From: Lingula anatina
Taxonomy: Eukaryota; Animalia; Brachiopoda
Assembly (NCBI GenBank): GCA_051362555.1
Contig: CM120641.1
Span: 2,480,001 to 2,544,000, forward strand
Direction: 5' to 3'
DNA: 64,000 nt
Shown: positions 1,120 through 48,417 of the stretch, in pieces
Layout: the number at the start of each line of letters is the position of its first letter
Position numbering within the stretch: the stretch's first letter is position 1
The notes under the pieces: model-generated
The model's database searches: none
The model's input: only the letters and a program-made list of their open reading frames with translations
What the model was told of the DNA's origin: nothing
Translations under genes and position numbers: made by a program

Positions 1120-1834
1120 GTGTTTTAGGATCCAGAGAGTCATCCATGTCTGAAGAATCAGCCAAAGAAGACCCCAGACAAATTCTGAAACAGCTTGAAA
1201 AAGAAATAACAGCTGGGAGAGATGTTAAAGGGAAGAGCATCCTTAAGGAGTCTTCCAAGGGTGAAACAACCACCCCGGAGACTGGGAAAGGCATCCTTAA
1301 AAGTGCTGCACCAACAGCGACCAGTGCCTCTGAGGACAGAATGATGGCGCCACCGTCAGCATCAGAAATCACCAGAGGGATTCTAAAAAGTGGTACAGAG
1401 AAAAAATCTGCAGACACAGCCTCCAAAAGTGAAGTGGCTGAACCGAAAAGCATTCTGAAAAAGGACAGCTTGAAAGAGACTTCACCTCCTTCTGCAGCAA
1501 CAGAACCTGAGAAGGGAGTTCTGAAGAAAGAAAGCTCCTTTGACAAGTCCAAAGGTCACATCAAGAGCATACTGAAACCAGACTCCAACTTTGACAAATC
1601 CAAAGAATCGCTGTCGCATCCAGGTGTCGTTCACAGCAACGGTACAGAAACCAAAGAGGAAGATACGTCATTGTCAGAGTCTGACCTGGATACTCTTGTG
1701 CAGGAAAACAAAAATGATGTATCTGTTGTAAAAGCCGGAGACCTGGATGACATCATTCAAGCCAACGAGCACGTGAAGACCCCGAGTAAAGACACTCCAC
1801 CCAGTAAGAGAAAGGAAAGGAAGGCTAACGAGAG
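1120..1834 (+). CDS. SVIL: Supervillin exon (N-terminal disordered region with SILK/GILK repeats)
   Basis: ccag acceptor at 1116-1119, open frame, AG|gtaggt donor, in phase with exon 5982. Confidence 0.75.
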
Positions 1835-4800
1835 GTAGGTGCATGGGTAACCATGCTGATCAGTATGCATGTTTATATATATATTTTACATTGTTAAGGA
1901 TCCGATTAACAGGGTGGCTATCTTCTAAACCGGACAAGATTTACCAACATTTGCATATCAATAGAAAGCTTATTTCAACTGCTTTTCATTCCATATCCTT
2001 ATTTTATTATGTAATCATTACATAAGGAAATATAACACTTCATAGGTGTTCTCAGCATGATCTTTTTACCTTAGTAACTAGAAGTCCACTATGCTCAAGT
2101 TAGTTATGATTAGATACATTGTAATTAAGCTGATATTAATAACTTCAAGAAGGGATGGGAGTGTTAGCTTTTAGGATATGACTCTTTGTTACTAAAATAT
2201 CCATTTGTGTGGCCTTAATCTATTAAGTAAAAATATTTAAACAAAATGCTAGACATATTTTTCATGCATTCTTCTGGTAAGTATATTGAAAATATGATAA
2301 TAATCAAAACAAAACAAGATCAACACCAATAGTAAAAAGACCCCTTCCTTTTCAAAGGTTTAGGTGTATGATAATAATCTATTCAAAACAGAAACTTTGG
2401 CCAGGTCTCAGTGTGTTGTGAGTAAACATGAGGTGCTAGTGTTAGTGTGTTTGTAAAGTTGAGTGAGTACACACTGTTCTCACCTTTGGTGAAATGTAAT
2501 AAGAGAGGCGTTAGTGGTTACTTTTGACAGGACCCACTTCACCAGTGACAAAAATGGATTATAATCTTGAGCTGAATCTTAACCACTCCATTTTGATATT
2601 TTTGTCTGTAATGATTAGATATATAATTTGGCTGTTGATGACTAATGAAATGGATAAGGAAACATGCATTATGAATCCTTGTGACCTAAGTATGTACTTG
2701 TCTAGTCTTTATCTATTTCAATGATAAATTGACTAGATTTTATGTATTTGCTTTGCTTAAAAATATATTTCGCTAGATTAATTCAGGAAGTTTTGCTATC
2801 ACATCAATGTGACATGGGCAAACACCATTGTTGAAAACAGTTCAACCTGCCATTTACACAGAAAATTTGGTTTATTATAAGAGAAGTTTTCCCCCAGCAA
2901 AAAGATAAAACTCCCCATGGATGGACATAAAACACAGGCCAGTAAGAACTGGACAATCAAATATCAGGCCCATAGCCAGCAATTTTAAAAGGGTTGGGGG
3001 GTCTTTTTCTGAAAAAGTTAACATTTTACCATGAAAACTTCATGTACCTAGAGAAAATTTTACCCATAGGGGACCTTTTATCGTCAAAAAGGGGGGGTTA
3101 TTGCTAACCCCCCCCCCTCCCCCCCCGATCCCCATGGCTCCAGGCCTGAAATATATACAGGGAAGATAGGCTCAAACCAAGGGTGAGATAGGAAAGAGGC
3201 TGGTTACCTTTTACATATTTGTCATGATATGATATCGCACAACATTTCATATAACACCTAATACAGAGGATTGATCTGAAAGTTCTGCTCACAGGTAGGC
3301 ATGTTGGGGGGAAAGGGCAGGTGTGAATATTTTAGGGATTTATAAAACTTAGTAAGTTAGTAGGGTTTTCATCAATCACTTTTAAAAAATGCTGTTTCTA
3401 AGAAATATGCCATAGATGGAAAGCCTGCATCACAACACTTTGAAGTAAGTAGATCATGAATTTTTAATAATTTGTCCTATATTTTAAATTCAACTGTTTT
3501 GCTTTCTTTACAGTACTACAAAGATCATGTTAGATAAGACCATTGAAGTTTACAATGTTGATGTCAGTATTTTATGTATATTGATTTATAAGGACACACC
3601 CATGCTTATGACATCATGAAGGACAATAAACAAAATAAAACAAAATCAACATCAATTGGTATAAATGCATCTTCCCTTTCATAAAGTTAGTTGTGTGATA
3701 GTAATCTGGATTTACTTTGACAATAATAAAAATCATTATTGCCATAGAATATTCTTTATGTTAAAGGAAACAAGTATGTACGAGCACACAAAATACAAGA
3801 GTTAATGTGTGCATTGATTCAGGAGAACAAAACAAAATTGTATTTATCTTCACATTAATGAAAGCTTAGGGTTCCATTGAACATTGAGTATATGAATTGA
3901 AACACTTTTGTTGAGACATAAAATGTGATAATTTTATTCAATGCACACCAGGAATAGAAATGTGAAAACTCGAATACAATGCTGGAAAGACAAGCCAATC
4001 AGTTTACGTGACAACTATTCTATACGAAAACTAGAAATGTGCCTTTAGTCACCTATATTAGTGCTATCATATTACACCTACGTATAAAGGCTGACTGACA
4101 AAACGCAGTTCCTAGCTATATATAGTAAACACAAATTTTACAAAGTCGGATGTCTTTATCTATAAATCTGTAAAATGTAAACTTGCCTTAGAGGTGACCC
4201 AGTTAATCGGGTGTCTGACAGTTATAATAGTCACTGCAATGATATTAACATAGATAAAGGAGAGAGATGAAGAGACATCAGGTAAGTTTTCTGTTTTAAC
4301 TACATCAAAAATCAGGTGTGGGAAGGCTTAATCTTCAGGTTTCTTTGTATATAGACTGGAAATTTTACTAACTTGTTTCATCAGACATCTTGATTGATTA
4401 AACTGCGATTTAGATGTTTGAATCACAGCAGGGTGGTTTTGTAATACCATTCTCTGTACAGTAGAGGTTCTAGTACCTAGCCTTTATAAGTCAAAAATCC
4501 TTAGCTGATCAGTCCTTTGTTTGATGACACTGAAAGTCTTCCAGGTTTCTTGAAAACCGGACACATTTGACTGTTGTATTTTGCTCCCCCCCCCCCCAGC
4601 CCCGACCCTTCAGTATAGAACTGTGCATTTCCTGATTTTTTTCACTTTCATGATTGTATTACACACTAATGCCATATTATCAATTTCCTTTTTAACATTG
4701 TTTTAAAGCATTTCAAAGACTTACTGATTACATTTGGTGCCTGTGTATCACTGGCTTTATGGATCATTTAGCACTTTGTGAGTACACTTTGTGAGGGGGG

Positions 4801-27732: not shown

Positions 27733-30700
27733 TTTATCGAAGATCAAATGATCTTAACGTTGTCAAATACATCTTTTAAAAAGAGCACAGAAATACAAAG
27801 AAAAGTATCAGTTATTTCCTATGTACAACTGGTATGAACATTTCGAGGCTTAATGATATTGTCTACTTTCGCCCAAAACTCCTTATTTACTGCCTTACGT
27901 ACATTCTTTTGGGAAATAGATAAATCTTCAGTATTCAGTGACTAAATTAGTTAACATTAACACATATGGCATCTTACGGGCAACGTCATAATTTCGATTT
28001 TGGGGTAAAAAATTGAAAAATCAGTTTCTCAAATTTCTTTATAATCTGAGCACCCAGGATCACCGTTTCAACGCCGATTTAATGACACCATTTAGTACTC
28101 TACAACCCTGCCAGCGATTTTTCTTAGAAGTTTTCGTTCAGATTTTAATCGTTGATAAAGCAAAATAATGTCTTTGTTTAATGAAAATCTGTAATTTGGC
28201 CCTCATAACACCATAACAAAAACATTTAAACCAAAATGACGGCAAGGAATTGTAGCCTATACATTCCCGGTAAACTCTGACAATTTTCATGATAAAATTT
28301 TGTTCAGGGATGAAGTTACGCCCCATACCGATTACTATCATATCTCAAAATAGAAAGGTGTTAAATTGATGATTTAAACTTTGAGCTGCCTATGCTTATA
28401 CATGTACATTGCAACGAATAATATAAATGCCGACATTTTACATTTTCGAGGGTTTTTTACTGTTTTAAATCAGCACAGAAATAGATACATTATTGAATAA
28501 TTAGATGCAGAAAAAACTTCATTTTCACTATCTGGATAATAATAAAGAGTTAGTTACAATATCCTCAATAAGAATTGCTACTTTTTTTTATTTTTGATTT
28601 TTTTGAAAGTTGTTTTATTTACTTTTATAGAAAACCTGTAGTTGATCCTTTGCCAGAGGTCGTCCCAGGTCTAGTACCATCCCCAGAACCTAGGACCCAG
28701 CAAAGTGAGAAACCAGAAGGTGAGGCTATCCCTCCACCGCCTCCCTCTAGAACACCTGAAACACCGGGAAATGCGTTCCCTACACAAACCATGGACACCA
28801 CCAGCGAGACTGTAGCGAGCGCAAATCTGCCCAGGGAGACCGAGGAAGAAGTTTCCTGTGGATCAAGTGGCAGTCCCGATGAAGTAGTCACCGTGTCTGT
28901 GTCCTTCACTGAAACCCATGCAGATGACGCTGGAAATCACATTGGACTAGAGGACACTTTTATGGCTGACGGGATGAGCGAGATAACCACAGCTTTTCAC
29001 GGTACCTCAGATATGTCACTGCCCACATTCATTGGACAGGAAGACATGAAGCAAATGGTGGAGGTACAGGTGCAAGCCGTTCACCAGACCACCTCAGGAG
29101 CCTGCACTGAGAGCAAATACAGCAGCTCACTTCAAGACGCTCCTGAGAAACCACAGCCAACAACCGTGATCTTTGTGTCACCTTACACCCCTGAGGAAGA
29201 TGACACATTGCCGACTCCTGTATCTAATGAAACACCAGGCCCCGTCAAAGTAGACGTGTCTGGTTCTCGATCTAAAGTCTCGCTTTCATGTGCCACTCAC
29301 AGTGGACCTGGGTGCATGAGACAAAACAGCGGCGCCAGCGACGCCATCATCCGTGAGGACCCGGCAGCCTACAGCTCTCCGAGCGACGTCTCTGTCCTGT
29401 CATACATCAGCGATACACCTAAGGCCCGTGCTTACATCAGCTCAAGTGCAACCTCCATCTTGGAGGTATGGGGCGAGGAGAAAGAGGTACCATCTCCCAA
29501 TTCAGCTGAACCTGGATCCAACATGGATAAACACGGAGTAATTTTTGACGAAATCATTCCCTTCCGCTGCCCATCTGACGACTCTCTTGTACCAAATACC
29601 GACAACACACCTGCAGTAGGACAGGGAATTCACACAATTGGGAGCACTATCTTTGAAGACAAAGTCATTCTTGACAAGGTTGTTCCCTTCCGCTGCCCAT
29701 CTGACGACTCTCTTGAACCAAATTCCGACAACGCACCTGCAGCAGGGCAAGGAATTGACTCAAGTGGGAACAATCTCTTTGAAGGAATCAGAAACGAGCA
29801 TCAGAATGAGAAAGAGGTCGCACTCCGAACACCGATTGCATCAAAGTCGCCCGATTCAGCTAAACATAGACCCAGCATGTATAAATATGACGAAGTCATT
29901 CTTGACAAGGTTGTACCCTTCCGCTGCCCATCTGACGACTCTCTTGGACCAAATACCGACAACGCACCTGCAGCAGGGCAGGGAATTGACTCAATTGGGA
30001 GCACTATCTTTAAAGACGACGTCATTCTTGACAAGGTTGTTCCCTTCCGCTGCCCATCTGACGACTCTCTTGGACCAAATACCGACAAAGCACCTGCAGC
30101 AGGGCAGGGAATTGACTCAATTGGGAACAATCTCTTTGAAGGAATCCGAAGCAAGCATCAGAATAAGAAAGAGGTCGCTCTCAGAACACCGATTGTATCA
30201 AAGTCGCCTGATTCAGCTAAACCTGGACCCAGGGTATATAAATATGACAAAGACACTGTTGACAAAATTGTTCCCTTCCGCTGCCCATCTTACGACTCTT
30301 TTGGACCAAATACCGGCAATGCACCTGTAGCAGGGCAGGAAATTGACTCAATTTGGAATACTATCTTTGAAGGAAACAGAAGTGAGCATCAGAATAAGAA
30401 AGAGGTCGCACTCGGAACACCGATTGTATCAAAGTCGTCTAGTTCACCTAAACCTAGATCCAACATGGATAAATATGGCGAAGTCAATATTGATAATATC
30501 GTTCGCTTCATACATCCATTTAATGATTCTCCTGGACCAAATACCGACAAGGCCGCTAAAGCAGCACAGGGAATTGATATGAAAGTCATTGTTGACAAAA
30601 TCATTCCCTTCCACTGCCCGTCTGACGACTCTCTTGGACCAAATACCAATAGCCCACCTAAAGCAGGACAGGAAATTGGATTATTTGGGGACACTCTCTT

Positions 30701-33152
30701 TGAAGGAATCAGAAGCGAGCATCAGAATAAGAAAGAGGTTGTGCTCGGAAAACCGATTGCAACAACGTCGCCTGATTTAGCTGAACTTAGATCCAACATG
30801 GATAAAAATGACGAAGTCAATATTGGCAAGGATGTTCCCTTCAAATACCTGTATCGATTTAATGATTCTCCTGGACCAAATGCCGACAACGCACGTAAGG
30901 CAGAACAGGAAATTGACTCAAGTGGGAACACTATCTTTGAAAACGAAGTCACATTTGACAAAATTGTTCCCTTCCGCTGCCCATCTGACGACTCCCTTGG
31001 ACCAAATACTGACAACGCACCTAAGTCAGGACAGGGAATTGACCCAAGTGGGAACACTGTCTTTGATATCGAAGTCACTGTTGACAAAATTGTTCCCTTC
31101 CGCTGCCCACCTGACGATTCTCTTGGACCAAATACCAACAACACACCTAAAGCAGGGCAGGAAATTGACTCAAGAGGGAAGACTGTCATTGAAGAAATCA
31201 AAAACGAGCATCACGGAACACCAATTGCATCAATTGCATCAAAGTCGCCTGCTCCAGTTGAGGCTGAGGTAGAGGAATCCAACAGCGACAAAACTGATAT
31301 CAGCATCAAAGAGGTCCTTGTTGCCTTCCACTGTCCATCTGAAGACTCTCCTGTGTCAGATATCAACAAGGCACCAAAACTAAGACCCGATATCAGCAGC
31401 AGTGATACCTCTATTGTAGAGGTAATCGGGGAAGTGGACACACACGTACATCAGGCCAATGAAACAAGAGTCGTGTCCATAATAATACCTAACATGCAAC
31501 AGTCGCCTGATTCACTTGAAGCTGAACAAGGATCCGACAGTGACAAAAGTGAATTAAGTATCCCCGAGGATCTTGATTCCTTCAGCTGTTCATCTGATTC
31601 TCGTGGGTCGAATACCAATAAAGCCCAGACATCAATACCCGACATAAGCCCAAGTGATACCTCTATTCCAGAGGAAATCGGGGAAATACAGGTGGACCAG
31701 AACAAAGCACCAAATATAAGACCCGATATTAGCACAAGTGCCACCTCTATCCCAGAGGATATAGGGGAAGTACATGAACATCGGTACGTGGATACGGGCG
31801 GTGGATCCAGGGTAAAACCCGCCGCATCCATGTTTCCAGATTCAGTTGAAGCCAAGGGTGGAAATTCTAGCGACAGAAGTGATTCAACCATCCCTGAAGA
31901 CCTTGCTGTGTTCAGCTGCTTGTCTGAGATTTCTGTTTTATCCAGCAGCAAAAAGACCTCAGTAACAAGACCAGACATCAGCACTAGTGAAACCTCCATC
32001 TCAGAGGAAATTTGTGGATCCTGTGAAAACGTCCAACATTATACGAAGACTGGTGTCGAGTCGCCTTTAACACCAGATGAATCGCACTTGCTTAATACTG
32101 TGAAAGCGGTGCCAGTGTCAGACAGCGACCTAAGCATTATTGAAGACATCGCTCCATACAGTTGTTTTTCTGAGACGTTCCTCTCGACTGGAATCAGACC
32201 AGTTACTGAAACATCGATTTTAGAGGAAATACACTCCAGCGTCTCATCGGAATCTAACCAGATTGAAACTGTTCACCAAGAAGAGAACAGCTTCCAAAAT
32301 GGCCGTGATAGAGCCACCAGCGTCATATCCCAACCTGAGGAAGAAATCGCCGTCGGAAACACAGCTTCCAGGGAAAACAGCAGCCCAAAATCTGTTTGTG
32401 GAACAGACTCTGATTCAAGTGTTTCTGAAATAGCTTTATCGCCGCCTTGTTCACAATCAATACTTAACCGTGGGGTTGTCCAATATGAACATTTCAGGTA
32501 AGAGTCTTATTTCTTATACATAACTATGATAAAGTGTTTGTAGATGCAGAACGGCGTGAAAATAAACATTTGATATTTTAATTCAACTTTTTATAGTATA
32601 TTTTGCTTCATCATGGTTTTATCTTTTAAAATTGGTGGTTAAATAATATTATATTTATTACTTTAAAGTTCAATGTGCAATACTAAAAGAGAGAATCAGT
32701 TGGGTTAAAAATGTTCGTTTTATATATCCAGATCGGGGGCCACCGCCCAGACTCCACCCACATTGGGCAACGCTCATTATAGTCAAGATTCAGGCATTGG
32801 GAGCAACCCTGCCTCGGCCCGCCGCACTGGCAAAGCCTCAAGTGGCTTCGTTATACCTCGTGCGTACAAAACTACGCAGCGTCTTCAGCAACGCCTTACA
32901 GCCAGTAACAACCACGTGACAGTCAAACCTCGAGCTGTCACACCAGCCCCCAATGGTGTAGAAAATAGGACATCTAGACGGACAAATGAGGGAAAGGGCA
33001 ATGAAACAAGGAAAGTGCCCAAAGGTTCTCGGCCTACCGCCGCACATCATCGTCGACGCCGTAAGAAACCAGCAACACCTGTACAGAATACAGCTAAGCG
33101 TGCTCGAGAAGCCTGGGGAGAAGAGGGCTATTTATCTGATTTCGAGGACTGA
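26923..33152 (+). CDS. Uncharacterised ~1468-aa acidic, low-complexity repeat protein (3 exons: 26923-27041, 28631-32497, 32732-33152)
   Basis: Exon 1 MPSWLRRAWRRVSCCSS...KLT-CA|gtaagt joins in phase to tttatag|A-AAA-CCT; 3867-nt open exon 2; AG|gtaaga joins in phase to ccag|A-TCG; stop TGA 33150-33152. Confidence 0.8.
27658..27729. repeat. (TA)n microsatellite, about 36 units
   Basis: Direct reading. Confidence 0.97.
29540..31250 (+). repeat. Coding tandem repeats: 126-bp (42-aa) and 231-bp (77-aa) units, core DKVVPFRCPSDDSLGPNTDNAP
   Basis: CTTCCGCTGCCCA at 29561, 29687, 29918, 30044 and onward; about 10 recognisable units plus diverged flanking copies. Confidence 0.92.
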
Positions 33153-38300: not shown

Positions 38301-38536
38301 TTAGCACAGATAACGCTCAAAGTAAAAACCGTTTTTATTACGACTAAAATAATTACCCACACTCCCGTATAATATGCATTTTCCATCAGGAGAAAAAGGC
38401 ATTTTATAAAAGGTGACTGCTTTACAACCTTCAAAATAGGTACAATCTTCTTTGCACGTTTTAGCATCAAAGCGAAGGGTGGTAGTGATCTTGGAGTCTG
38501 GTGTACTGGCAAACCCCTTCTTCCAACAAGTTTTAC
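38301..38536 (-). CDS. Terminal exon of the convertase-like gene encoding a PAN/apple domain
   Basis: ttttag| phase 1; GKTCWKKG...TCKEDCTYFEGCKAVTFY...GKCILY...YFERYLC* (6 Cys in PAN spacing); not present in the ORF track. Confidence 0.8.
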
Positions 38537-41500
38537 CTAAAATATTTAAAAAATCGTCTGAGTTATAAAATTGAAGATTTACTGGCAGCGAACACCACAG
38601 GTAGGTTTCAGGACATAAAGTCTGCCGGGGTCAGTTTAAAAACAACATTTAGCATTTAAAAACATATAAAATACGTTTAGTATCTAAACGCGTTTAGAAA
38701 TATACGTAAAAGCAAAACACGCGTGGAGCTGCTTAACACATTCTGCAGCATGCTTGGATACTTTGTGTACCTCCTTGCTGTAACTTGTGACTATTTTTAA
38801 TATGCCTATTAAGTAATGACCAAGATAACAAATAACGTTTTCATGAGGTTATCAGATGGTTAGATTTTGGTTATGGCACAGAATAACTCTATGATAACGT
38901 TATATGTAATAACTCCATGATAAAGAATGTCCCAGCTGACGAAAAGGTTATGGTATACAATAACTTGTAGAAAAATACGAAAAACGATTGTACAAAATGT
39001 TACAATAAAGTTATCTTGTTGAGTATTTTAGCGTTTTTAAAACATTCTGGAACAACATTATAATTATAAAAATGTTTGAAAACGTGGATTAGTTCAAATG
39101 ATTATTAAGACATTTATTTATTGTCATCATTAATGATATATTTTTTTGCAACAAGCACATTGTTAAGTACATTATGAAATACCCTGTGTAGGTTCCAAGT
39201 TCCACACAACACTAATCCATATCTGTTTTGATATAAACCTCCCATGGTAATACTTAGTTGCGTTTGAGAATGTTACATGTAAAATATCGCAGACACGTAT
39301 AGAATTGCATCAAAACCTTATGCTTTCAACCCGTATTTCAACACCTATTTTACTTAGGATTTATGCAGATGGTGATTGTGGTTTTATCATTAATTATTCT
39401 TATTCCTGAACCCATAAAAATCTAGACATTTACGTGATATTACCTGTTTTGAATGGATCCTTTGTTGTAGGTTTCTGTGTTGTATTTACAGCTACATTTA
39501 ACTGGCAGCTTGTAGGAATATCGTTGGTATTGGGGTCCATGGGTTTTCTATCCATGCCATATAAATGTAGTTTCATGGAATGAAGATAACCTTATTACAA
39601 AGAAACAAAGGAAAACAATGAAAATTATTATGATGTATACAAATGAAACGCTCAGTGAAAACTCAGTCCAATCAGAATGATGAAACCATTTAGAAAGCCT
39701 CTTTGCAACCCCACAAATGCACTATGCACTATTTGTTTTGATATTTATCTTTATGATATAACATTACGTAATTTTAATTAATTAAACATTATCTAATGCT
39801 ATATGATTAGTAACACAATTCTTTACTAGAGGGGCCTTTCAATGACACTATATTTGTGCTTGTCCTTTACTTATTCATTCGCTTGGGTTAATGAGGAGAC
39901 ATAAAGTACTACGGTGTATGTGCCAAGTCCTATTTTAAGGAATAGATGATAGAGTTTTAAATAACTTGAACATTCCTTTGTTTGAGAGGTGAGTGTTTGA
40001 TTCTTATAAGTAAATCTAACAGCAGAGGGACGAGTATTGTGTATGACATGTTAAGGAAACTAACCTTTAGATTTAATTGTTGGTTTAATCAGTATCTTTA
40101 GTCACTGTCGAAATAAGCTGAGAAATGTAAAATTCTAAATACTATCCCCTTACCTTGTTCTCCACTCTTGCTAGAATCTACTATATATAAATTCCAATGT
40201 TGGAAGTCACCGTTTGTGACTGCTTCTCCCCAAAACTGAACTGATTTGACCTGTAAAACACACTCACTTATTAACTGCCATCGTATGTGCTTTTTTTAGT
40301 TTAAACAGATCCGTTATTTTCAAGGTTTGGTGTATCCAAGCAAAAAGCGTAAATCACTAGTGTAACATGCCCTTATATGGGTATTTTCACATTCATAATC
40401 TTACCAAATATTTTCCAACATTGATAGGTTAACTGCTATGTAAATCCTAACATTTGACATACGGTACAAATTGTTACATTATCCAATGTTGGTCTATTTA
40501 AAATCTGTGCAAGGTCAATTAACTTATTTAGATCATTGGAGTTACTTTATATTTCTTGGAAGATAGTATTACAAAAGAATGATGAAAAGGTATGCATTAG
40601 TTATAGTCTATCCTAATGCATGAGGTACTGTATATCAAATTGGTTTTTAAAATGTAAAAATACCGTGATACTCAGGTCTTGAAAAAAGATGTCGTTGACA
40701 CGCCCTGGTAGCAGCAATCTTAAAGTGTTGGATGGCGATACAAGATGCATTTGTATACGGCCTCTTTTTGGAAACGTCAAGTTAAATTCTACGAGGACAT
40801 CTTCAAGGAACTGTATGTTACACTCCGACGGCACTTTGAATTGGACAAGTCTTTCGGGTATACCTATCGGCCTACAAAAAACCAGCATCGATTTTACAAT
40901 TTATTTTATTTCCTTAAGTTTCTACAGATATCTCGTTTCGACAGTCTCGTTTTGTCACCTTCGGGTTGTTTTTTAACTAACCTGAACGTTAAAAAATTTT
41001 CTATAAAAATTTTCTAAAAATTTTTTTTTATATTATTGCACTACGTGTACGGTATAAATTAATTTTGTCTTATTATGACACTACTTACCACCATTTTATA
41101 TTGGGTTCCACTACACAATGTTTCATTTCTTTCCAGCCTCCAACAGACCACCAGTTATCAGGGTGTGCCATGTTAATTAAGCGATCAATGTCTAGTTCAC
41201 CAAACCCAAATGTTGGTGACACTGTAAATATCAAATTGAAATTCGTTTTGCAATGTGTAAGGATGTCTGACACGTTTTACAAGTCTTACTGTTGCAGGTC
41301 CTCAAGTTGTCTTCTTGTGATATTCGTCCTCACAGAAGAAAAATAATTCTGGTTCATAATGCACTAAAATATTTGATGACTGTGACTTAATTCAAAATAA
41401 TTGTAATTTGAATATCTCCACTTTTAGACCAAATACTTGCCTGCAAATATTCGTCATCCCATTTGCTTGAATTACAATTTATGAACTGAAAATTTTGAAA

Positions 41501-42114
41501 TTTTTTTCTTACGGCAATTTTTCAAAACTTTCTCAAATAAGTTCGGTTCAAAATATTTGTAAGCAAATGTTACCTTTTGTGACCCTATATTTGTAAAATG
41601 TAATAAGTGTTCTTTTAACCTTTGTAGCCAGCAGCATTTTCTTCAAAGTTGTTCGGCAGGAGCCCATCTTTACTTCCACTCCGTGCAAGAAGATGCTTTA
41701 TATCTCTCCATGTTAGATTTGGACTACAATATCAATAGTTATTAACGCAATTAGGTTAATTAATCCAAAATCCTTTCATAAAAGATGCATTGTAATGATA
41801 AATACCGCAGCAATGGTGGTAATATGCCTAGTGAGTAAACCTATAACACAACTTAATAAATGTTTTCTTTTCTAATGCTATCATTATGTTATCGTTCTAT
41901 TAGCTTGTATTAAGGCCATAATGACTCGACCAACTTGACCCGACCAACTTGAAAATAATTATGAATTTGTTTTTGTTACGCACATCGTGTATATATTAAG
42001 TGTATTGTGGGGTTTGTAAAAATTCTTTGTACTTTCTACTCAAGTTTGAAATAAATTATCTATCTAGTTTGTTTACAAAAGCGGTGTGCGTGCGTGCAAA
42101 CTTAAGCTCCCCTA

Positions 42115-42152
<38 letters not shown>

Positions 42153-45100
42153 TCACAAGTAAAATAAACACACTTCTCTTCCATGACTAAAGCTATCGCT
42201 CCAGACGCCATTGGCACTGCGGCTGAGCACCTGGAGAAAGACTTTGTGCACTTGTCTGTACCAAATGTAGTCACCTGAAATTTTAAAGAAAAATGAACAT
42301 CAAAGCTAACACCAACACATAGCATGAAGAATGTACAAGCTCGCAATCATTTACAAAAGACACGATACCATATATCAAGAGAGAGTGAAAGATCACTGAC
42401 AAAGACAGAGAAGCTATACATCTGCCGGTATATACGTACAATTTCCGTTCCCCCTGTATTTTGGGATGGTGCTGCAGCAAAGGTTGCAGAGCAATTTTCA
42501 CCAGACTTCAGCATACGTTTGTTTCTGTCCACAGCTGTAATGCCAAGGGTAAACACTGAGTTGGAATAGCCATCGTAAGCGCAGCTGTCACCGGTAGGCC
42601 CTCCGTTGCCAGTTCCCCACAGATACACCGAACCTTTTCCATCACGTCCCTGAAACGTGTCATTAGTGTCATAAATATATATTCTTAAGAATAAAGTGCA
42701 AAATTGCTGAAATGTTAAGCCTTCCTAAAATAGCATTAAATGGCTACAATGTTAGTTGCACAGTCTTGTAATTACAAAATGCATTATGCTTGGAATGGTT
42801 TGTATATTTGAAGATGAGAATATTGTTTGGAAAGCATCAGCTGTGCATTTGCAGTTTCTATAGACCTGCATACTTTATAGACCTAGAAAATCCTTAACGT
42901 AAACTAAACCCCAGTTTCATCAACGCTGGATAAAGCTATCCTATGGATGTTCATTGGATAAAATCGCTATCCTCTGGGCAGTTACCCTGAGGTTAGTAGC
43001 CGCTTTAACCGAAGGATAGCAATATCAAAGACCAAAAAAACTTTCATAATTTCCATACACATCATCATTTCCTTGAGGTATTATTTAAATAATTCATATG
43101 GTGACAACATCGCGTAAGTTCAAAATCTCGATCTATTACCAGTTTCGTTCCCTCCTCCAAAATATCTAGTACAGGTTTTTTTGGTCCACCAACTGAAATC
43201 CCAGAGTTGCTTATTGTCCAACTGTTACTATAAATGTGGATGTCCTTTGGCTTGTAGGATAAGGCCTCCATTAAATGCGTAGTTTTAAGTGTACTTTTTT
43301 GACCGAATACACGCAAATCTGAAATAAGTATTAGAGAAATTAATTCAATCATCAGTCATTTGAGTGCATTATAATAACTTTTACATCAAGAAATATATAC
43401 AGAACAATGATTTATGCATAAAATTGATGAAGGAAAAGCACAGGTTTGGCTACAGCGCACAGCAGCACGATTCAATCGGAAATTACATATTTGTTGAATC
43501 AATATTGTAAATAGAAAGTCCAGAGCCGTGTATTTTACAAAAAAAGTGCCACGTTTTATTTTAAACAATGGAATTAATTTAGGGTTCAATTTTCATGGAA
43601 AGTTACATATGATTCCATTAAAGTTACCAGTGACTGACAGGAAAAGTGACACATTTAACACAGCCTACCAGCAATGGAAGCCTGAGGTGCCACTCCAATT
43701 CCGCAAAGATTGTTCGATTTTGCCGATGCAACTCCTGCCACCTGGGTGCCATGACTGAAATGTAAACTAAAGACTTAATTTTTATTGCGATGATATTACA
43801 CTGTGTACCATGTCAGTAGTTAAGTTAATTGCATGGTTCTGTCAGTACATATAATTATTGACAGTAATTCTCTCTCTCTCGCTCGCTCGCTCTCTCTCTC
43901 TCTCTCATTTTAATACCTTCTGATATCACAGGGGCCCCTAGTATATAGCCATTATAGCCTGTTGCAAAATTGAAGAAAACAATTTTGTAACAGCATACTA
44001 ATGGCGATCCCTGGGGTCATTTAACCACTAACTTGAAAGCTTCACCTGAACATACATGTAGATATTTTTTAATTTCTTGGTATACATATCTTACGTGGTA
44101 CATCAACATATAGACACGATTATTTGTAAGACTCGACAAAGACTTTACTTCCTACGGCGCTTGAGATCATTCTATGTCAACCGAAAATCGCTTGTAAAGT
44201 TTAACTGGGCGATGATTGAGATGTATTGACACTCTCTTTCACCGTTTTATAAGGTAGTGCTACAGCAGGAGACAATAATCACTAGTTTGTTCATGCCTAC
44301 CGGTATGTCATCAATGTCATGACAGTCAGACTACGGTAATATTCAAAGCAAACTTTACACGTAGCAAAACCATTTTTCTAACAGCAACATGAATTTCTAT
44401 GAGCACAATGGATTTTATAATATTATATTTTTTAACAACAGCTCACATTAATTTTCATGTTATTATCTCATCTTATCTTAGTACACACAGCGCTCATTAC
44501 CAACTCCTACAAAATATACCAATCGCCAAAAAAAACAAAAAAACAACAACTATAATTCCCCTGTCACACATTTGCACATAATTACACTGAAATATCTAAA
44601 ACGCTCCAAGTCATGTGTACGTGCGTGCTCAATAGAAACGTTTTTAAACCTACCTTCTTGACTGAACTGGAACATTACCCCAGAAGTTTTTGCTCAGCGC
44701 TCTGTCCTTTAGAAAGATTAATAATAAAAGCTTATAAATAAATAGATGTTCAGTTTTTATTTAAAAAAAAAAAACTTGTGACATACGCTTATGAGGAGAG
44801 AGAGAAAGAGGGAGAGAATAGCTGCCAATATTTACTTGCACTGGCAGGTCCATGCTATCAAGAAGGGCGGGAGCATGTTTCTGCTGGCCATGGTTTACAT
44901 CTTTCCTTGACGGGGATGGTAGACTGAATCTAGCATTTTCTGTTAGAAAAGGGAGTCCGACGTTTTTTGCTGGAGAGAGAGAGGGAGAGAGAGCAGAATA
45001 ACTTACAACCGATAAATCAGGATGGTCCAGTACACCATTATCCAAAAGCCCAATTGTCACCCCTCGTCCAGTGTAACAGTGTTCCCATCCACTCTTTGCA

Positions 45101-48100
45101 TTGAAAGGCTGTTCACTCTAAAAAACAAGTAACTAAATTCTTTTCATTTCTGAAAATTCAAACAATAAGCGTTTTGCAAATCAAGGCAATTCCAAGGTAC
45201 GTGTAACCGCAAACAACCATTGCTAATCTTTAATTTGCCGTGCATGTTAGCTAAAGTCTCTCTCTATCTAAACCAACTTCTGCATACTTTGAACTTGGTA
45301 GTTTAAACTTAGTTTACAATATGCATGTACATTTGCCTACAATTCTAATTGCAAGGCAACGACCAACGCCTCCAGTTTCTTTTCAAGAACTTTAATGGAA
45401 AATATTTTCATTGTTTCATCTGTGTCCTAAATACTCAAAGAGTCACCGAAGCTCCATTTTTGCTCGAACATATGAAACAAAATAGTTAATATAAGAAATT
45501 GAAATTGATCAAAATGACGCAGTAAGATTACCATTGTATTTTAACAGTTTTGAACCATTTGGCGAAAATACTTACCAAATACCACTTTTGTGTTCGCCAC
45601 ATTGGATCCTTTATGGTTTCCCAAGTGTTAACATCTGCAGACAACAGGGTGTACATCTCTTCTGTCTCGTAATCTACCCATTTCACCTAAATGTACAAAT
45701 TAATAGCAACAGCAACAGTTGCCTTTTTAATATTTGCAATTAGTTCCTTTTAATAGTGAATATATCTCTATGTTGCAACTGAGATAAACTGTTGTCCACG
45801 AAGCCACTTTGAAAAAGAAAATAAATTATTTGGTATTTTTAAAAATAACATGCTATATAGTTTGAACTACATCCAAAAACATTTTACCTTTGTATCAGAA
45901 GCTAGTAAGGTGAGGGAGTCGCTGTCTTGGTTTTTGTCCAGAAATGAATAGTAATTACCGTACACCTGAATAAAAGGTTAATACACACAAATGTAACTGT
46001 CTAACCCGCCTGTTTTAAACTTTTAACAACACAGACACAATACAAGAGAATAACTTCTCCTGTTTAAAACAAATAGAAATAACATCTTTTAAAAACATGA
46101 TTAAAGCAAATATGACAATACCAGTAATATATCACGTATAACGCATTTATGTCTCAGGCCAGATTGAAATCCAGTCAGATTAAATTGGATTTTTGATTAG
46201 ATTTAGGCCAATTTTAAATCGGCTTAGACCCAAACAAAATGTCAATACTGCCTAGGCGAAATTAAAATCTGACTGGACAAGATTTAAATCTATCTAGGAA
46301 AGTTTGAAATTTAAGTATTAAAACAGATATAATTAGTGAAAATCACCATGAAAAAAAAATAAATAAATAATACATTATATGCTGATTATAATAAGCCAAG
46401 TGTATTTTTACTATTTCGTAAAAACATTTATTTAATGTTTCTTTTGTATTATTGAAATTTTAATCTTACTTAGTCAGACTTTAATCTTGCTTGGACAGGC
46501 CAAATTAAAACTTCAGTTCTGTCTAGTTCATATTAACTATATTTACATATTGACGGATTTCAATCTGGCTTGCGACATGGCCTGTAACACACACACACAC
46601 ACGCGATAAAACAAAACCCAAATTATTTATTCACATTGACAAGACCATTTGATCAAAATATATACTCCCCTAGCAAAATGTGTCACCCCTACCGCAATCA
46701 TGTACATTGCCACAAGGATACCCATTGTTTAAATTTTACTATAACACAACAACTAGACAAACAATCATCGTGCAATCTGGGGATGTTAGTAGTAGGTCAT
46801 TGGCTTACCTAGCGCTAAGCGTTATATAGTTAAAATACTTTAATACCAATTATTTTTAATATGCGGCTCCTAAGTGAAAGGGATACTTTTTTTTACATAG
46901 AGGGAGTTTTGACCGCCGAATGGTTTACTGAAAAGGACACCAGCCAATAACTGGGCAATGATACTTAGCGTCTTCAGAATGTATGGACGCGTAAGGGTTT
47001 GGGGAACAGATGGTAAGGAGTAACTATTGCGTAAGCGAGCTGGCAGTGGTCAACGGGAACCTTAACACAGAACGTTGCATACTAGAAGAGAATTCTGTCG
47101 AGAATATCTTTTGGGACCATGATCAACCATTTATGCTTAAGCATGATAATGCTACCCCACGTACAACTAATGCAACAGCACTCTGGTTATATGAGAACCA
47201 GATTCAGACCCCAGTGGCCGGTCCTGATTAGAGTTCATTAAAAAACATAGAGAATTAAAGCTTGGGATGTCTTCAGAATAATGGATAACTGAGGGATAAC
47301 TCTGAAAACAAAAATGAAGTAACACCTTCTTTGCACCGTATATGGAACGCCATCAATTGCACAAAGGTTATAGAACTTCTTGGCTCCACGCACAGATGCG
47401 ACTGGTGCGTCCTCCAATCCAGAAGATACTCAAAAAGTTCTAAAATATGACCTTTTTAAAAACTATGGTAATTTATTCCTTGGTTGTACAATCTGTAAGT
47501 TTTTGTAATAAAATGTTTAAAAGTTGAATAAGGAACATTGGTTCATGACATGATTTTCTGTTTCATCTCACGCATTGCTTTAGGGGAGTATAGATAACAG
47601 TTCCTTATTTTAAAAAGGAAACTCGGTTCTGCAGCATTATTTAAAGCATAAACGTTACCAGAGCGATGAACACTTTACAAAACGCAATTTACTTTTGGAC
47701 AGAAAAGATTTGACAAACCTTATTCATCATGTCCAGTCCGTATCTTTTTGCAAAATCCTGAACCTCGGAAGCACTTATGTCACTTTTAAATTGAACGATC
47801 AGTGTCCTCTCGTCCTCAAATGACCTTGAATATTAAATCAAACCGATATCTAGTAAGCGTAAGTTGAATATTGCCGTTTTGCGCACCAAGCTTAGTACTC
47901 CATGTTCATATCCAAAAAGAAAGTGATAAAACATGATGATGGACTGTCAATATTAGTACCGGTGTAACGAAACTGGGGGTCCGTGTTACAGAAAGTCCGC
48001 CCTTTATTTACTTATAATGGTTAGGGTTAGCCTGACCTAAGAGGGTCAAAATCTAGGGCGAGGCTTACCTGCTCAAACAAATAGGAAACGGACAATATGG

Positions 48101-48417
48101 GGGACTCTCTGTCACGTTACACCGGTGTTCAACTTCAGCTGTCACTGTAACAAGCCAAACTGTCCCAGCCTAAAGCATTTCGATAAAACTTTTAAAATGC
48201 CCACATGTGGTAAATAGCACTATCATAAAATCTTCGTATTTACAAACATAAGGTACATTACAATGTCTTCATGATTGTTTATCATTCGGCTAGAATGAAC
48301 GAACACAGATAAGTATACTTTCCAATTATCAAAATAATTTAGTACTCACCTCGCGATACCTTGAAGCGTTACAAAAACTAATATCAAAATGTGTGCCTTC
48401 ATCCTTCTTCTTTGCAT
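38301..48417 (-). CDS. Divergent proprotein convertase-like subtilase (S8B): signal peptide, pro-domain, catalytic domain, P domain, Thr-rich linker, C-terminal PAN/apple domain; 16 exons, 675 aa
   Basis: Minus-strand exons 48417-48350, 47824-47719, 45965-45888, 45686-45576, 45117-45007, 44706-44654, 43754-43669, 43318-43140, 42649-42440, 42274-42174, 41723-41620, 41221-41089, 40871-40664, 40250-40154, 39590-39444, 38536-38301; all GT-AG, phase-consistent, 2028 nt, no internal stop. Motifs YTGRGVTIGLLDNG, HGTQVAG, IHIYSNSW, GRDGKGSVYLWGTGNGG, DGYSNS, NPNLTWRD, FGFGELD, LVSPS, FWGE. Confidence 0.9.
46149..46578. mobile_element. MITE-like inverted-repeat element in a convertase intron
   Basis: ATGTCTCAGGCCAGATTGAAATCC (46149-46172) inverted as GGATTTCAATCTGGCTTGCGACAT (46555-46578); short degenerate internal repeats. 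Confidence 0.65.
46665..47588 (+). mobile_element. Tc1/mariner deletion derivative (copy B) with a DDE transposase remnant
   Basis: Same TIR and TA flanks as copy A; remnant GNLN...FMLKHDNATP...WL...GPD resembles the Tc1 FQQDNAP...WP.SPDL region. Confidence 0.82.
47958..48126. mobile_element. Small MITE-like element with an internal GGTTAGGGTTAG
   Basis: Perfect 12-bp TIR ACCGGTGTAACG / CGTTACACCGGT. Confidence 0.65.

Follow-up and report, generated by a model that had tools for sequence, protein, structure and literature searches.

For fixed specificity toward basic residues, kexin and furin provide the textbook scaffold; the mammalian PCSKs with non-basic sites, S1P and PCSK9, come from other subtilase lineages. 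We analyzed a gene in a 64,000-nucleotide stretch of Lingula anatina DNA (assembly GCA_051362555.1, contig CM120641.1, positions 2,480,001 to 2,544,000; this whole stretch is hereafter the window). Its product resembles furin, PC1-7 and Kex2 (S8B) in its layout of signal peptide, prodomain, S8 domain and P domain, in its Asp/His/Ser/Asn catalytic residues and in the spacing of the pro-site from a conserved Trp. It differs from them in lacking R-X-K/R-R, in having largely lost the acids of the S2, S4 and S1 subsites as assigned for furin (PMC2515848), in reading RCS for GTS and in carrying a C-terminal PAN domain instead of a Cys-rich/transmembrane tail. SKI-1/S1P (PCSK8, MBTPS1) cleaves R-X-aliphatic-Z sites, with Leu the best aliphatic residue, and processes itself at RRLL in the prodomain (PMC8310232). 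Tao et al. (2019; bioRxiv 10.1101/802215) noted that Lingula has more than one furin-like gene and that amphioxus has duplicates on long branches, and set aside five Lingula models that were incomplete; in the main text of that preprint neither 'active site' nor 'basic' occurs (0 occurrences each), and loss of the basic site is not discussed there. Our literature search, with subscription papers mostly outside its coverage, returned no account of invertebrate kexin-like proteins with non-basic pro-sites.

The gene lies on the minus strand of an intron-rich window of animal DNA and spans 48402-38301 in 16 exons, which join into a single open frame of 670 amino acids with GT-AG borders at all introns (Table 1). 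Residues 1-442 are identical at 439 of 442 positions to the Lingula anatina RefSeq model 'furin-1' (P0001), which ends after exon 12 and whose start codon lies 5 codons upstream of the start in exon 1. The encoded order is signal, prodomain, S8, P domain and PAN. Pfam matches comprise S8 (PF00082, 115 bits) and the P domain (PF01483 in exon 13, 22.8 bits, cut-off 21), the two domains by which Tao et al. define kexin-like convertases, and PAN (PF00024 in exon 16, 27.5 bits, cut-off 21.4). Eight of nine same-species RNA runs were mapped, each sampled at 6–26%, and joints were found for introns 4, 5, 8 and 11 (4 of 15) in three of the eight. These three runs (X1, X2 and X3, from one study) have minus-strand exon coverage and the remaining five show none; the exon 8-exon 9 joint is present in all three, and variant-bearing reads at 39503-39582 in X1 and X3 fall in exon 15. 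Introns 12-15 have no listed joint, and PAN-encoding exon 16 is attached by splice site and phase because no joint is listed for it and it lies outside the stretches mapped with RNA. A pseudogene was ruled out by the open frame and the splicing, and a sequencing error behind the odd residues by the independent RefSeq model, which carries identical residues.

The pro-site register was counted from the conserved Trp of the final prodomain strand, with RTKR of furin at W+9 to W+12. In the same ungapped register as furin RTKR|D, the Lingula protein reads YTLL at W+9 to W+12 within WVDYETEEMYTLL|SADV, so that the non-basic site that the initial annotation had seen in place of R-X-K/R-R is confirmed. 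The tail positions P6–P1 contain no basic residue, no RxxR or dibasic site lies near the boundary, and the sole pattern of this kind in residues 1-130 is KR at 44-45, within a prodomain helix. An internal LTLL|A in the prodomain was considered as a second pro-site and rejected: it falls in a helix predicted by AlphaFold2 (AF2), and the likeness was taken as chance. At 45638, RNA reads and the RefSeq allele show an Ala96/Thr polymorphism, which affects the predicted P2′ residue.

Furin numbering was verified on horse furin (P0031) and then transferred to the window. The catalytic set is complete, with D153=D142 (45042-45040), H194=H172 (43753-43751), N295=N274 (42607-42605) and S368=S346 (42226-42224). 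The initial annotation was thus right that the triad and oxyanion Asn are kept, Ser346 being encoded in the exon just beyond the interval it described, and right that D301, D306 and E331 are retained, as is Y308. Retained D301 and E331 presumably represent the S1 calcium site known from furin structures and do not speak for basic specificity. The proposed D154N, G255T, E257S, D258N, D259S and D264G all stood against the horse furin numbering, and the D191 loop is indeed shortened, because D153 and H194 span 30 residues compared with 41 in furin; seven junction reads support the exon 6 start. The reading of TDAVEA as TTHLME held for the loss of both acids but its pairing was one residue off, the anchored alignment giving D233T and E236L. 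The pocket acids D154, D233, E236, D258 and D264 are gone; in furin, E236, D233 and D264 belong to S4, D258, D306 and A292 to S1, and D154 and D191 to S2 (PMC2515848, Table 2). The S1 pair of basic-specific convertases, D258 with D306, is accordingly broken by D258N with D306 in place, and A292G, G255T and P256I alter S1 further. Beyond the substitutions first noted we found H364F, G366R, T367C, A292G, W328K, Y329S, L227F and D174N, together with the P and PAN domains and the absence of the prodomain loop that bears furin's internal basic (second-cleavage) release site. The Ser253–Pro256 template of furin, which includes G255, pairs with the substrate backbone, and G366, W328 and Y329 line its putative S1′ site (PMC8453481).

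Searches with the allele and with profiles yielded a 202-row domain alignment, and trees were built from the catalytic and P domains with pro-site columns excluded and pocket columns included. Alignments, trees and counts used an earlier 14-exon, 561-amino-acid model, whose differing tail lies beyond all scored positions. Four proteins without a full domain match (P0153, P0249, P0268 and P0295) and six rows that share a 90% cluster with a retained row were left out; the pro-site rows further omit 7 of the 32 clade rows, which have no alignable prodomain strand, and 41 of the 164 outside rows, which failed the anchor filter. The Lingula protein and its paralog P0002, about 50% divergent, group with a support of 100/100. 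The next level is a protostome group of three Lingula paralog rows with Lineus, Tubulanus and Nymphon (99/91), and an outer clade with amphioxus and coral proteins takes in 17 of 42 rows (97/95), other trees being similar. The clade grouping may reflect long-branch attraction or convergence, given the long branches, the use of pocket columns and a clade definition made with the tree in view. Many coral rows are closely related, and about six deep sublineages have the Leu site.

Membership in known groups was examined in the same framework. Orthology with furin, as the RefSeq label 'furin-1' has it, was rejected: forcing the Lingula protein and P0002 to group with seven furin-type rows was 84 log-likelihood units worse (approximately unbiased test, p 1e-75), for a group named post hoc and with long branches involved. 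Membership in SKI-1/S1P was dismissed on the presence of a P domain and on furin/Kex2 being the nearest structures, and membership in the PCSK9/proteinase-K-like lineage on the absence of any I9 (PF05922) match at E 0.01. Proteins of acorn worm, Owenia, Hydractinia and shark ('PC3-like') that we presume to be the PCSKX group form a separate clade (99/99) with RxKR sites, and identity of our clade with PCSKX of Tao et al. appears unlikely on our tree. The shark 'PC3-like endoprotease variant B' of the P0212 cluster groups with these presumed PCSKX rows; PCSKX is described as lost in vertebrates in the same preprint. The clade is probably an undescribed subfamily of a known enzyme family.

Non-basic pro-sites with Leu at P2 recur throughout the clade. 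Besides YTLL in the window, Lingula sites read RELM (paralog P0002, with E236 kept), RSLF and CELF, the sea spider RELR, and the amphioxus proteins RHLY, RELY and RYLR; corals and rows placed among them show RALY, KALY, RVLY, NELY, YKLL, YQLL, YILH and YEMY, and the exceptions are IASR and RVPR. Of the 23 clade rows that passed the filter, 20 have Leu at P2 and 4 a basic P1; the corresponding figures for the 123 outside rows are 4 and 118. The register is specific: 23 of 25 clade rows have Leu or Met at W+11, no other offset between W+5 and W+16 has them in more than 5, W+12 is Tyr, Phe, Leu, Met or Trp in 20 and W+13 is small in 23 of the 25. The D/H/S/N set is complete in 30 of 32 clade rows. 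Among the seven clade rows lacking an alignable strand, three show RSKR or RVKR, one of them being a dead nemertean protein. This protein (P0273/P0228, Tubulanus) has a short N-terminus and the canonical RSKR, lacks the catalytic His, Ser and oxyanion Asn, and is likely a pseudoprotease processed in trans. The non-basic P2-Leu site is common in the clade; G255T is private to the Lingula protein.

The pocket varies with the site. Across 25 clade rows, residue 236 is acidic in all 14 with a basic P4 versus 2 of the 11 with a non-basic P4; on the tree this amounts to five independent pairs, of which a mean of 4.7 are concordant and none opposite (sign test, p 0.0625). The window gene and P0002 provide one such contrast (YTLL with Leu-236, RELM with Glu-236), and eight other acidic positions show no link to P4 (p 0.18–1). 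Outside the clade, 151 of 164 rows keep both S1 aspartates, D258 and D306; within it 2 of 32 do so, both of them amphioxus proteins with Arg at P1, and none of the 21 rows with a non-basic P1 does. D154 as a switch for P2 was unsupported, being kept in 21 of 32 clade rows; residue 227, mostly Leu outside the clade (138 of 164 rows) but Phe or Tyr in 25 of its 32 rows, is a lead only. Tail-pocket covariation indicates that the tail binds the cleft; cutting or turnover in trans does not follow from it.

The AF2 model of the allele (predicted local distance difference test score, pLDDT, 87.5; predicted template modelling score, pTM, 0.79) has furin as its closest fold (template modelling score 0.66, 36% identity), and furin is also the best PDB sequence match (E 7e-61). 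With the chain cut at P1, the prodomain-catalytic domain complex scored 0.70 and the best of three controls 0.00, with at least 89% of contacts in agreement between runs and a partner pLDDT of at least 81; the pass mark is one that 51 of 78 solved microbial complexes attain, as do 2 of 108 mismatches, the eukaryotic figures being 71 of 105 and 2 of 126. In P0001 numbering, tail residues 91-99 contact D147, H177, 237-242, N279 and 349-351, with W238 against Y96, T97 and L98; these elements are the triad, the oxyanion Asn and the SWT strand, and W238 faces P4–P2. The cut at P1 was chosen by us and biases the docking register, and the docking pass may stem from resemblance to solved furin-prodomain complexes (9fie, 9fid). 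In the uncleaved AF2 model of paralog P0002, P4–P2 (R95-E96-L97) is drawn as a strand at moderate confidence (block mean pLDDT 60). The pro-peptide tail, whose placement in the active site was a check suggested at the outset, docks there in the chain cut at P1 and is unplaced in the uncleaved AF2 chain of the Lingula protein.

The cleft of this family is very probably adapted to a non-basic tail with Leu at P2, a conclusion better supported than turnover by the Lingula copy. The clade-wide site is (R/K/Y)-x-L-(Y/F/L/M)|small and covaries with the pocket. Clade sites such as RELM, RSLF, RALY and RHLY fit the S1P motif, although S1P belongs to a separate subtilase lineage and the Lingula protein has Tyr at P4, so that YTLL falls outside that motif; the resemblance would be convergent. 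A broader proposal, to which we give slightly less than even weight, is that the clade is an unrecognized seventh animal kexin-like lineage, older than the cnidarian-bilaterian split and retained in corals, amphioxus, brachiopods, nemerteans and a sea spider, which switched on a furin scaffold from paired-basic to S1P-like (R/K/Y)-x-L-hydrophobic sites; the prodomain tails of its members would spell out their specificity, and the Lingula gene would encode a derived member that cuts at Tyr-x-Leu-Leu and is targeted by its PAN domain. The clade would have lost P1-Arg recognition through replacement of one of the S1 aspartates (D306 by Asn in two amphioxus and most coral rows, D258 in the protostome rows), gained P2 Leu and kept the P4-Arg/E236 pair, and the Lingula copy would subsequently have changed P4 to Tyr together with E236 to Leu. 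In the prediction, the YTLL end of its prodomain occupies the active site of the same protein and would be cut after Leu94, the resulting enzyme would likely prefer (aromatic or hydrophobic)-x-Leu-(hydrophobic) over basic sites, and the PAN domain would direct it to extracellular partners. That the protein is a secreted zymogen which cleaves its own chain at YTLL|S and goes on to attack hydrophobic sites is the likeliest of the readings considered, at about even odds. The change put forward in the initial annotation is mostly inherited from an old clade and is not a rewiring peculiar to this gene; its functional enzyme cleaving at YTLL|S stays a prediction.

A number of observations weigh against this proposal. 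For the family, a coral subgroup with D306N/S has RVKR in 2 of 4 rows, D258 is missing from two rows with P1 Arg, and E236 persists in two with P4 Tyr. No single pocket residue explaining P2 Leu was found. The p value of 0.0625 is the floor attainable with five pairs, which puts 0.05 out of reach, and the P1/S1 comparison comprises three independent pairs (two concordant, one tie; p 0.5). For the Lingula copy, G255T is unique among 196 rows: 30 of the 32 clade members and 159 of the 164 rows outside have Gly255, and within the clade it is otherwise missing only from the dead nemertean protein (G255S); outside, three rows lack it although their D/H/S/N set is complete (two Ser, one Glu or misaligned). 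T367C likewise occurs in no other of the 196 rows. At 67 clade-conserved columns the Lingula protein departs 13 times, compared with 15 and 11 times in two catalytically altered rows and 1–8 times in seven intact rows, which had themselves helped define the columns. Its terminal branch is 0.9 versus 0.32 for P0002, residues 93-105 of the uncleaved allele have pLDDT <50 and no tail strand in AF2, and the eight coding variants among those listed from RNA (three synonymous, five non-synonymous) are too few to judge.

Covariation between tail and pocket needs only binding and one intramolecular cut, and would also suit a PCSK9-like protein that cuts itself once at YTLL|S, or merely binds its tail, keeps its prodomain bound and is secreted as a protease-inactive binder acting through its surface and PAN domain. 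The missing loop with furin's internal release site fits such a protein, as does a heavily altered prime-side pocket, in which position 366 has lost its Gly in 23 of the 32 clade rows and in 1 of the 164 outside. PCSK9 itself is a precedent (PMC8310232). It shares with the Lingula protein a non-basic self-cleavage (predicted in Lingula), the nature of a secreted subtilase and a C-terminal interaction domain, and differs in being proteinase-K-like with an I9 prodomain, whereas the Lingula protein has a P domain. We regard this explanation as rather unlikely, though a serious one: the repeated paired changes at P4 and 236 and at P1 and 258/306 resemble specificity tuning, which is easier with trans substrates, and several clade members retain the full-length internal loop.

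Another explanation accepts a genuine hydrophobic-site family in which the Lingula copy is crippled or under relaxed selection, G255T blocking the substrate strand or S1. In subtilisin, side chains at Gly127 restrict S1 and lower activity, and changes of Thr220 weaken transition-state stabilization. The private G255T and T367C, the loss of D174, the long branch and the count of departures near that of catalytically altered rows all point this way, as do a prodomain match of 17.6 bits with PF16470 (cut-off 25.5; AF2 folds the domain at pLDDT 85–96), the tail left unplaced by AF2 and a low expression that is absent from five of eight RNA runs. We nevertheless find it improbable, given 16 open exons with canonical splice sites despite about 50% divergence from the nearest paralog, the retention of D/H/S/N, D301, D306 and E331 in a confidently predicted fold, and a private P4 change from Arg to Tyr that is matched by E236L, as in other members. 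The initial view that enzyme and pro-site changed in a coordinated way and not by random decay is supported on these grounds, the non-basic site being clade-wide and covarying with the pocket and the gene intact and spliced. A still monobasic (Arg/Lys) protease with relaxed P2 and P4, activated in trans or elsewhere, could be argued from D306, D301, E331 and Y308 and from two protostome clade members with P1 Arg and D258 lost, but is very improbable with S1 remodeled by D258N, A292G, G255T and P256I and with no basic residue in its own tail or RxxR/dibasic site near the boundary.

Table 1. Exons and pro-site of the Lingula kexin-like gene, in window coordinates.
Feature	Position	Strand	Support
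Exon 1: start codon and signal-peptide-like hydrophobic stretch	48350..48402	-	sequence; AF2 helix 2-22
Exon 2: prodomain	47719..47824	-	GT-AG, in frame, agrees with P0001
Exon 3: prodomain; the loop that in furin bears the internal basic site is ~7 residues shorter	45888..45965	-	
Exon 4: final prodomain strand, pro-site, catalytic-domain start	45576..45686	-	joint to exon 5: X1 3 reads, X2 5 reads
YTLL, predicted P4–P1, residues 91-94	45642..45653	-	register W+9 to W+12; predicted in cleft
Exon 5: catalytic Asp142, Asn143 (furin D153, D154)	45007..45117	-	
Exon 6: shortened D191 loop	44654..44706	-	7 junction reads from exon 5, X1
Exon 7: catalytic His172	43669..43754	-	
Exon 8: S4 region (D233T, E236L), alignment-template strand SWTISN (G255T, D258N, D264G)	43140..43318	-	
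Exon 9: oxyanion Asn274; D301/D306/E331 equivalents kept; A292G, W328K, Y329S	42440..42649	-	
Exon 10: catalytic Ser346 within FSRCS (H364F, G366R, T367C)	42174..42274	-	
Exon 11: catalytic domain	41620..41723	-	joint to exon 12: X3, 5 reads
Exon 12: catalytic-domain end; P0001 stops here	41089..41221	-	
Exon 13: P domain	40664..40871	-	PF01483; low correct-strand RNA depth in X1, X2, X3; no junction listed
Exon 14: P domain	40154..40250	-	GT-AG, in frame; no junction listed
Exon 15: final P-domain strand and T/P-rich linker	39444..39590	-	aligns to paralog P0002
Exon 16: PAN/apple domain and stop	38301..38536	-	splice site and phase only

Elsewhere in the window, tblastn found no tandem PCSK paralog, and Pfam matched none of the 100 open reading frames scanned out of 161 found. 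A 1308-codon open frame at 28575-32501 (+), acidic and Ser/Pro-rich with no Pfam match, contains about ten imperfect copies of a 'DKvvPFRCPSDDSLGPNTdnAP' repeat and is probably one large exon of a neighboring gene. A 230-codon frame at 1146-1838 (+), also without a Pfam match, has repeated K(G/S)ILK motifs, which we take to resemble the SILK motifs that bind protein phosphatase 1. Within intron 1, a short repeat at 47958-48126 with 25-nt inverted ends looks like an element of the miniature inverted-repeat transposable type and collects RNA reads from many other loci (depth >100, loose ends); small intronic repeats at 39700-39910 and 42920-42950 also draw reads from other loci. Among the relatives, the Nymphon striatum protein P0150/P0272 is an arthropod clade member that likewise has a C-terminal PAN domain, and P0125 (Styela clava), P0123 and P0175 contain tandem degenerate kexin domains, most without catalytic residues.

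To our knowledge, the enzymes for non-basic precursor processing are a gap in work on cnidarian neuropeptides. If the proposed lineage is real, kexin-derived hydrophobic cutters would break the rule of fixed basic specificity and converge on the S1P motif, and the clade would present, as a natural series, matched changes in enzyme and substrate (P4 with 236, P1 with 258/306). Many invertebrate 'furin-like' and 'neuroendocrine convertase-like' annotations would then be functionally mislabelled, and the family would be a source of candidates for the enzymes that process precursors at non-basic sites in corals and other invertebrates.

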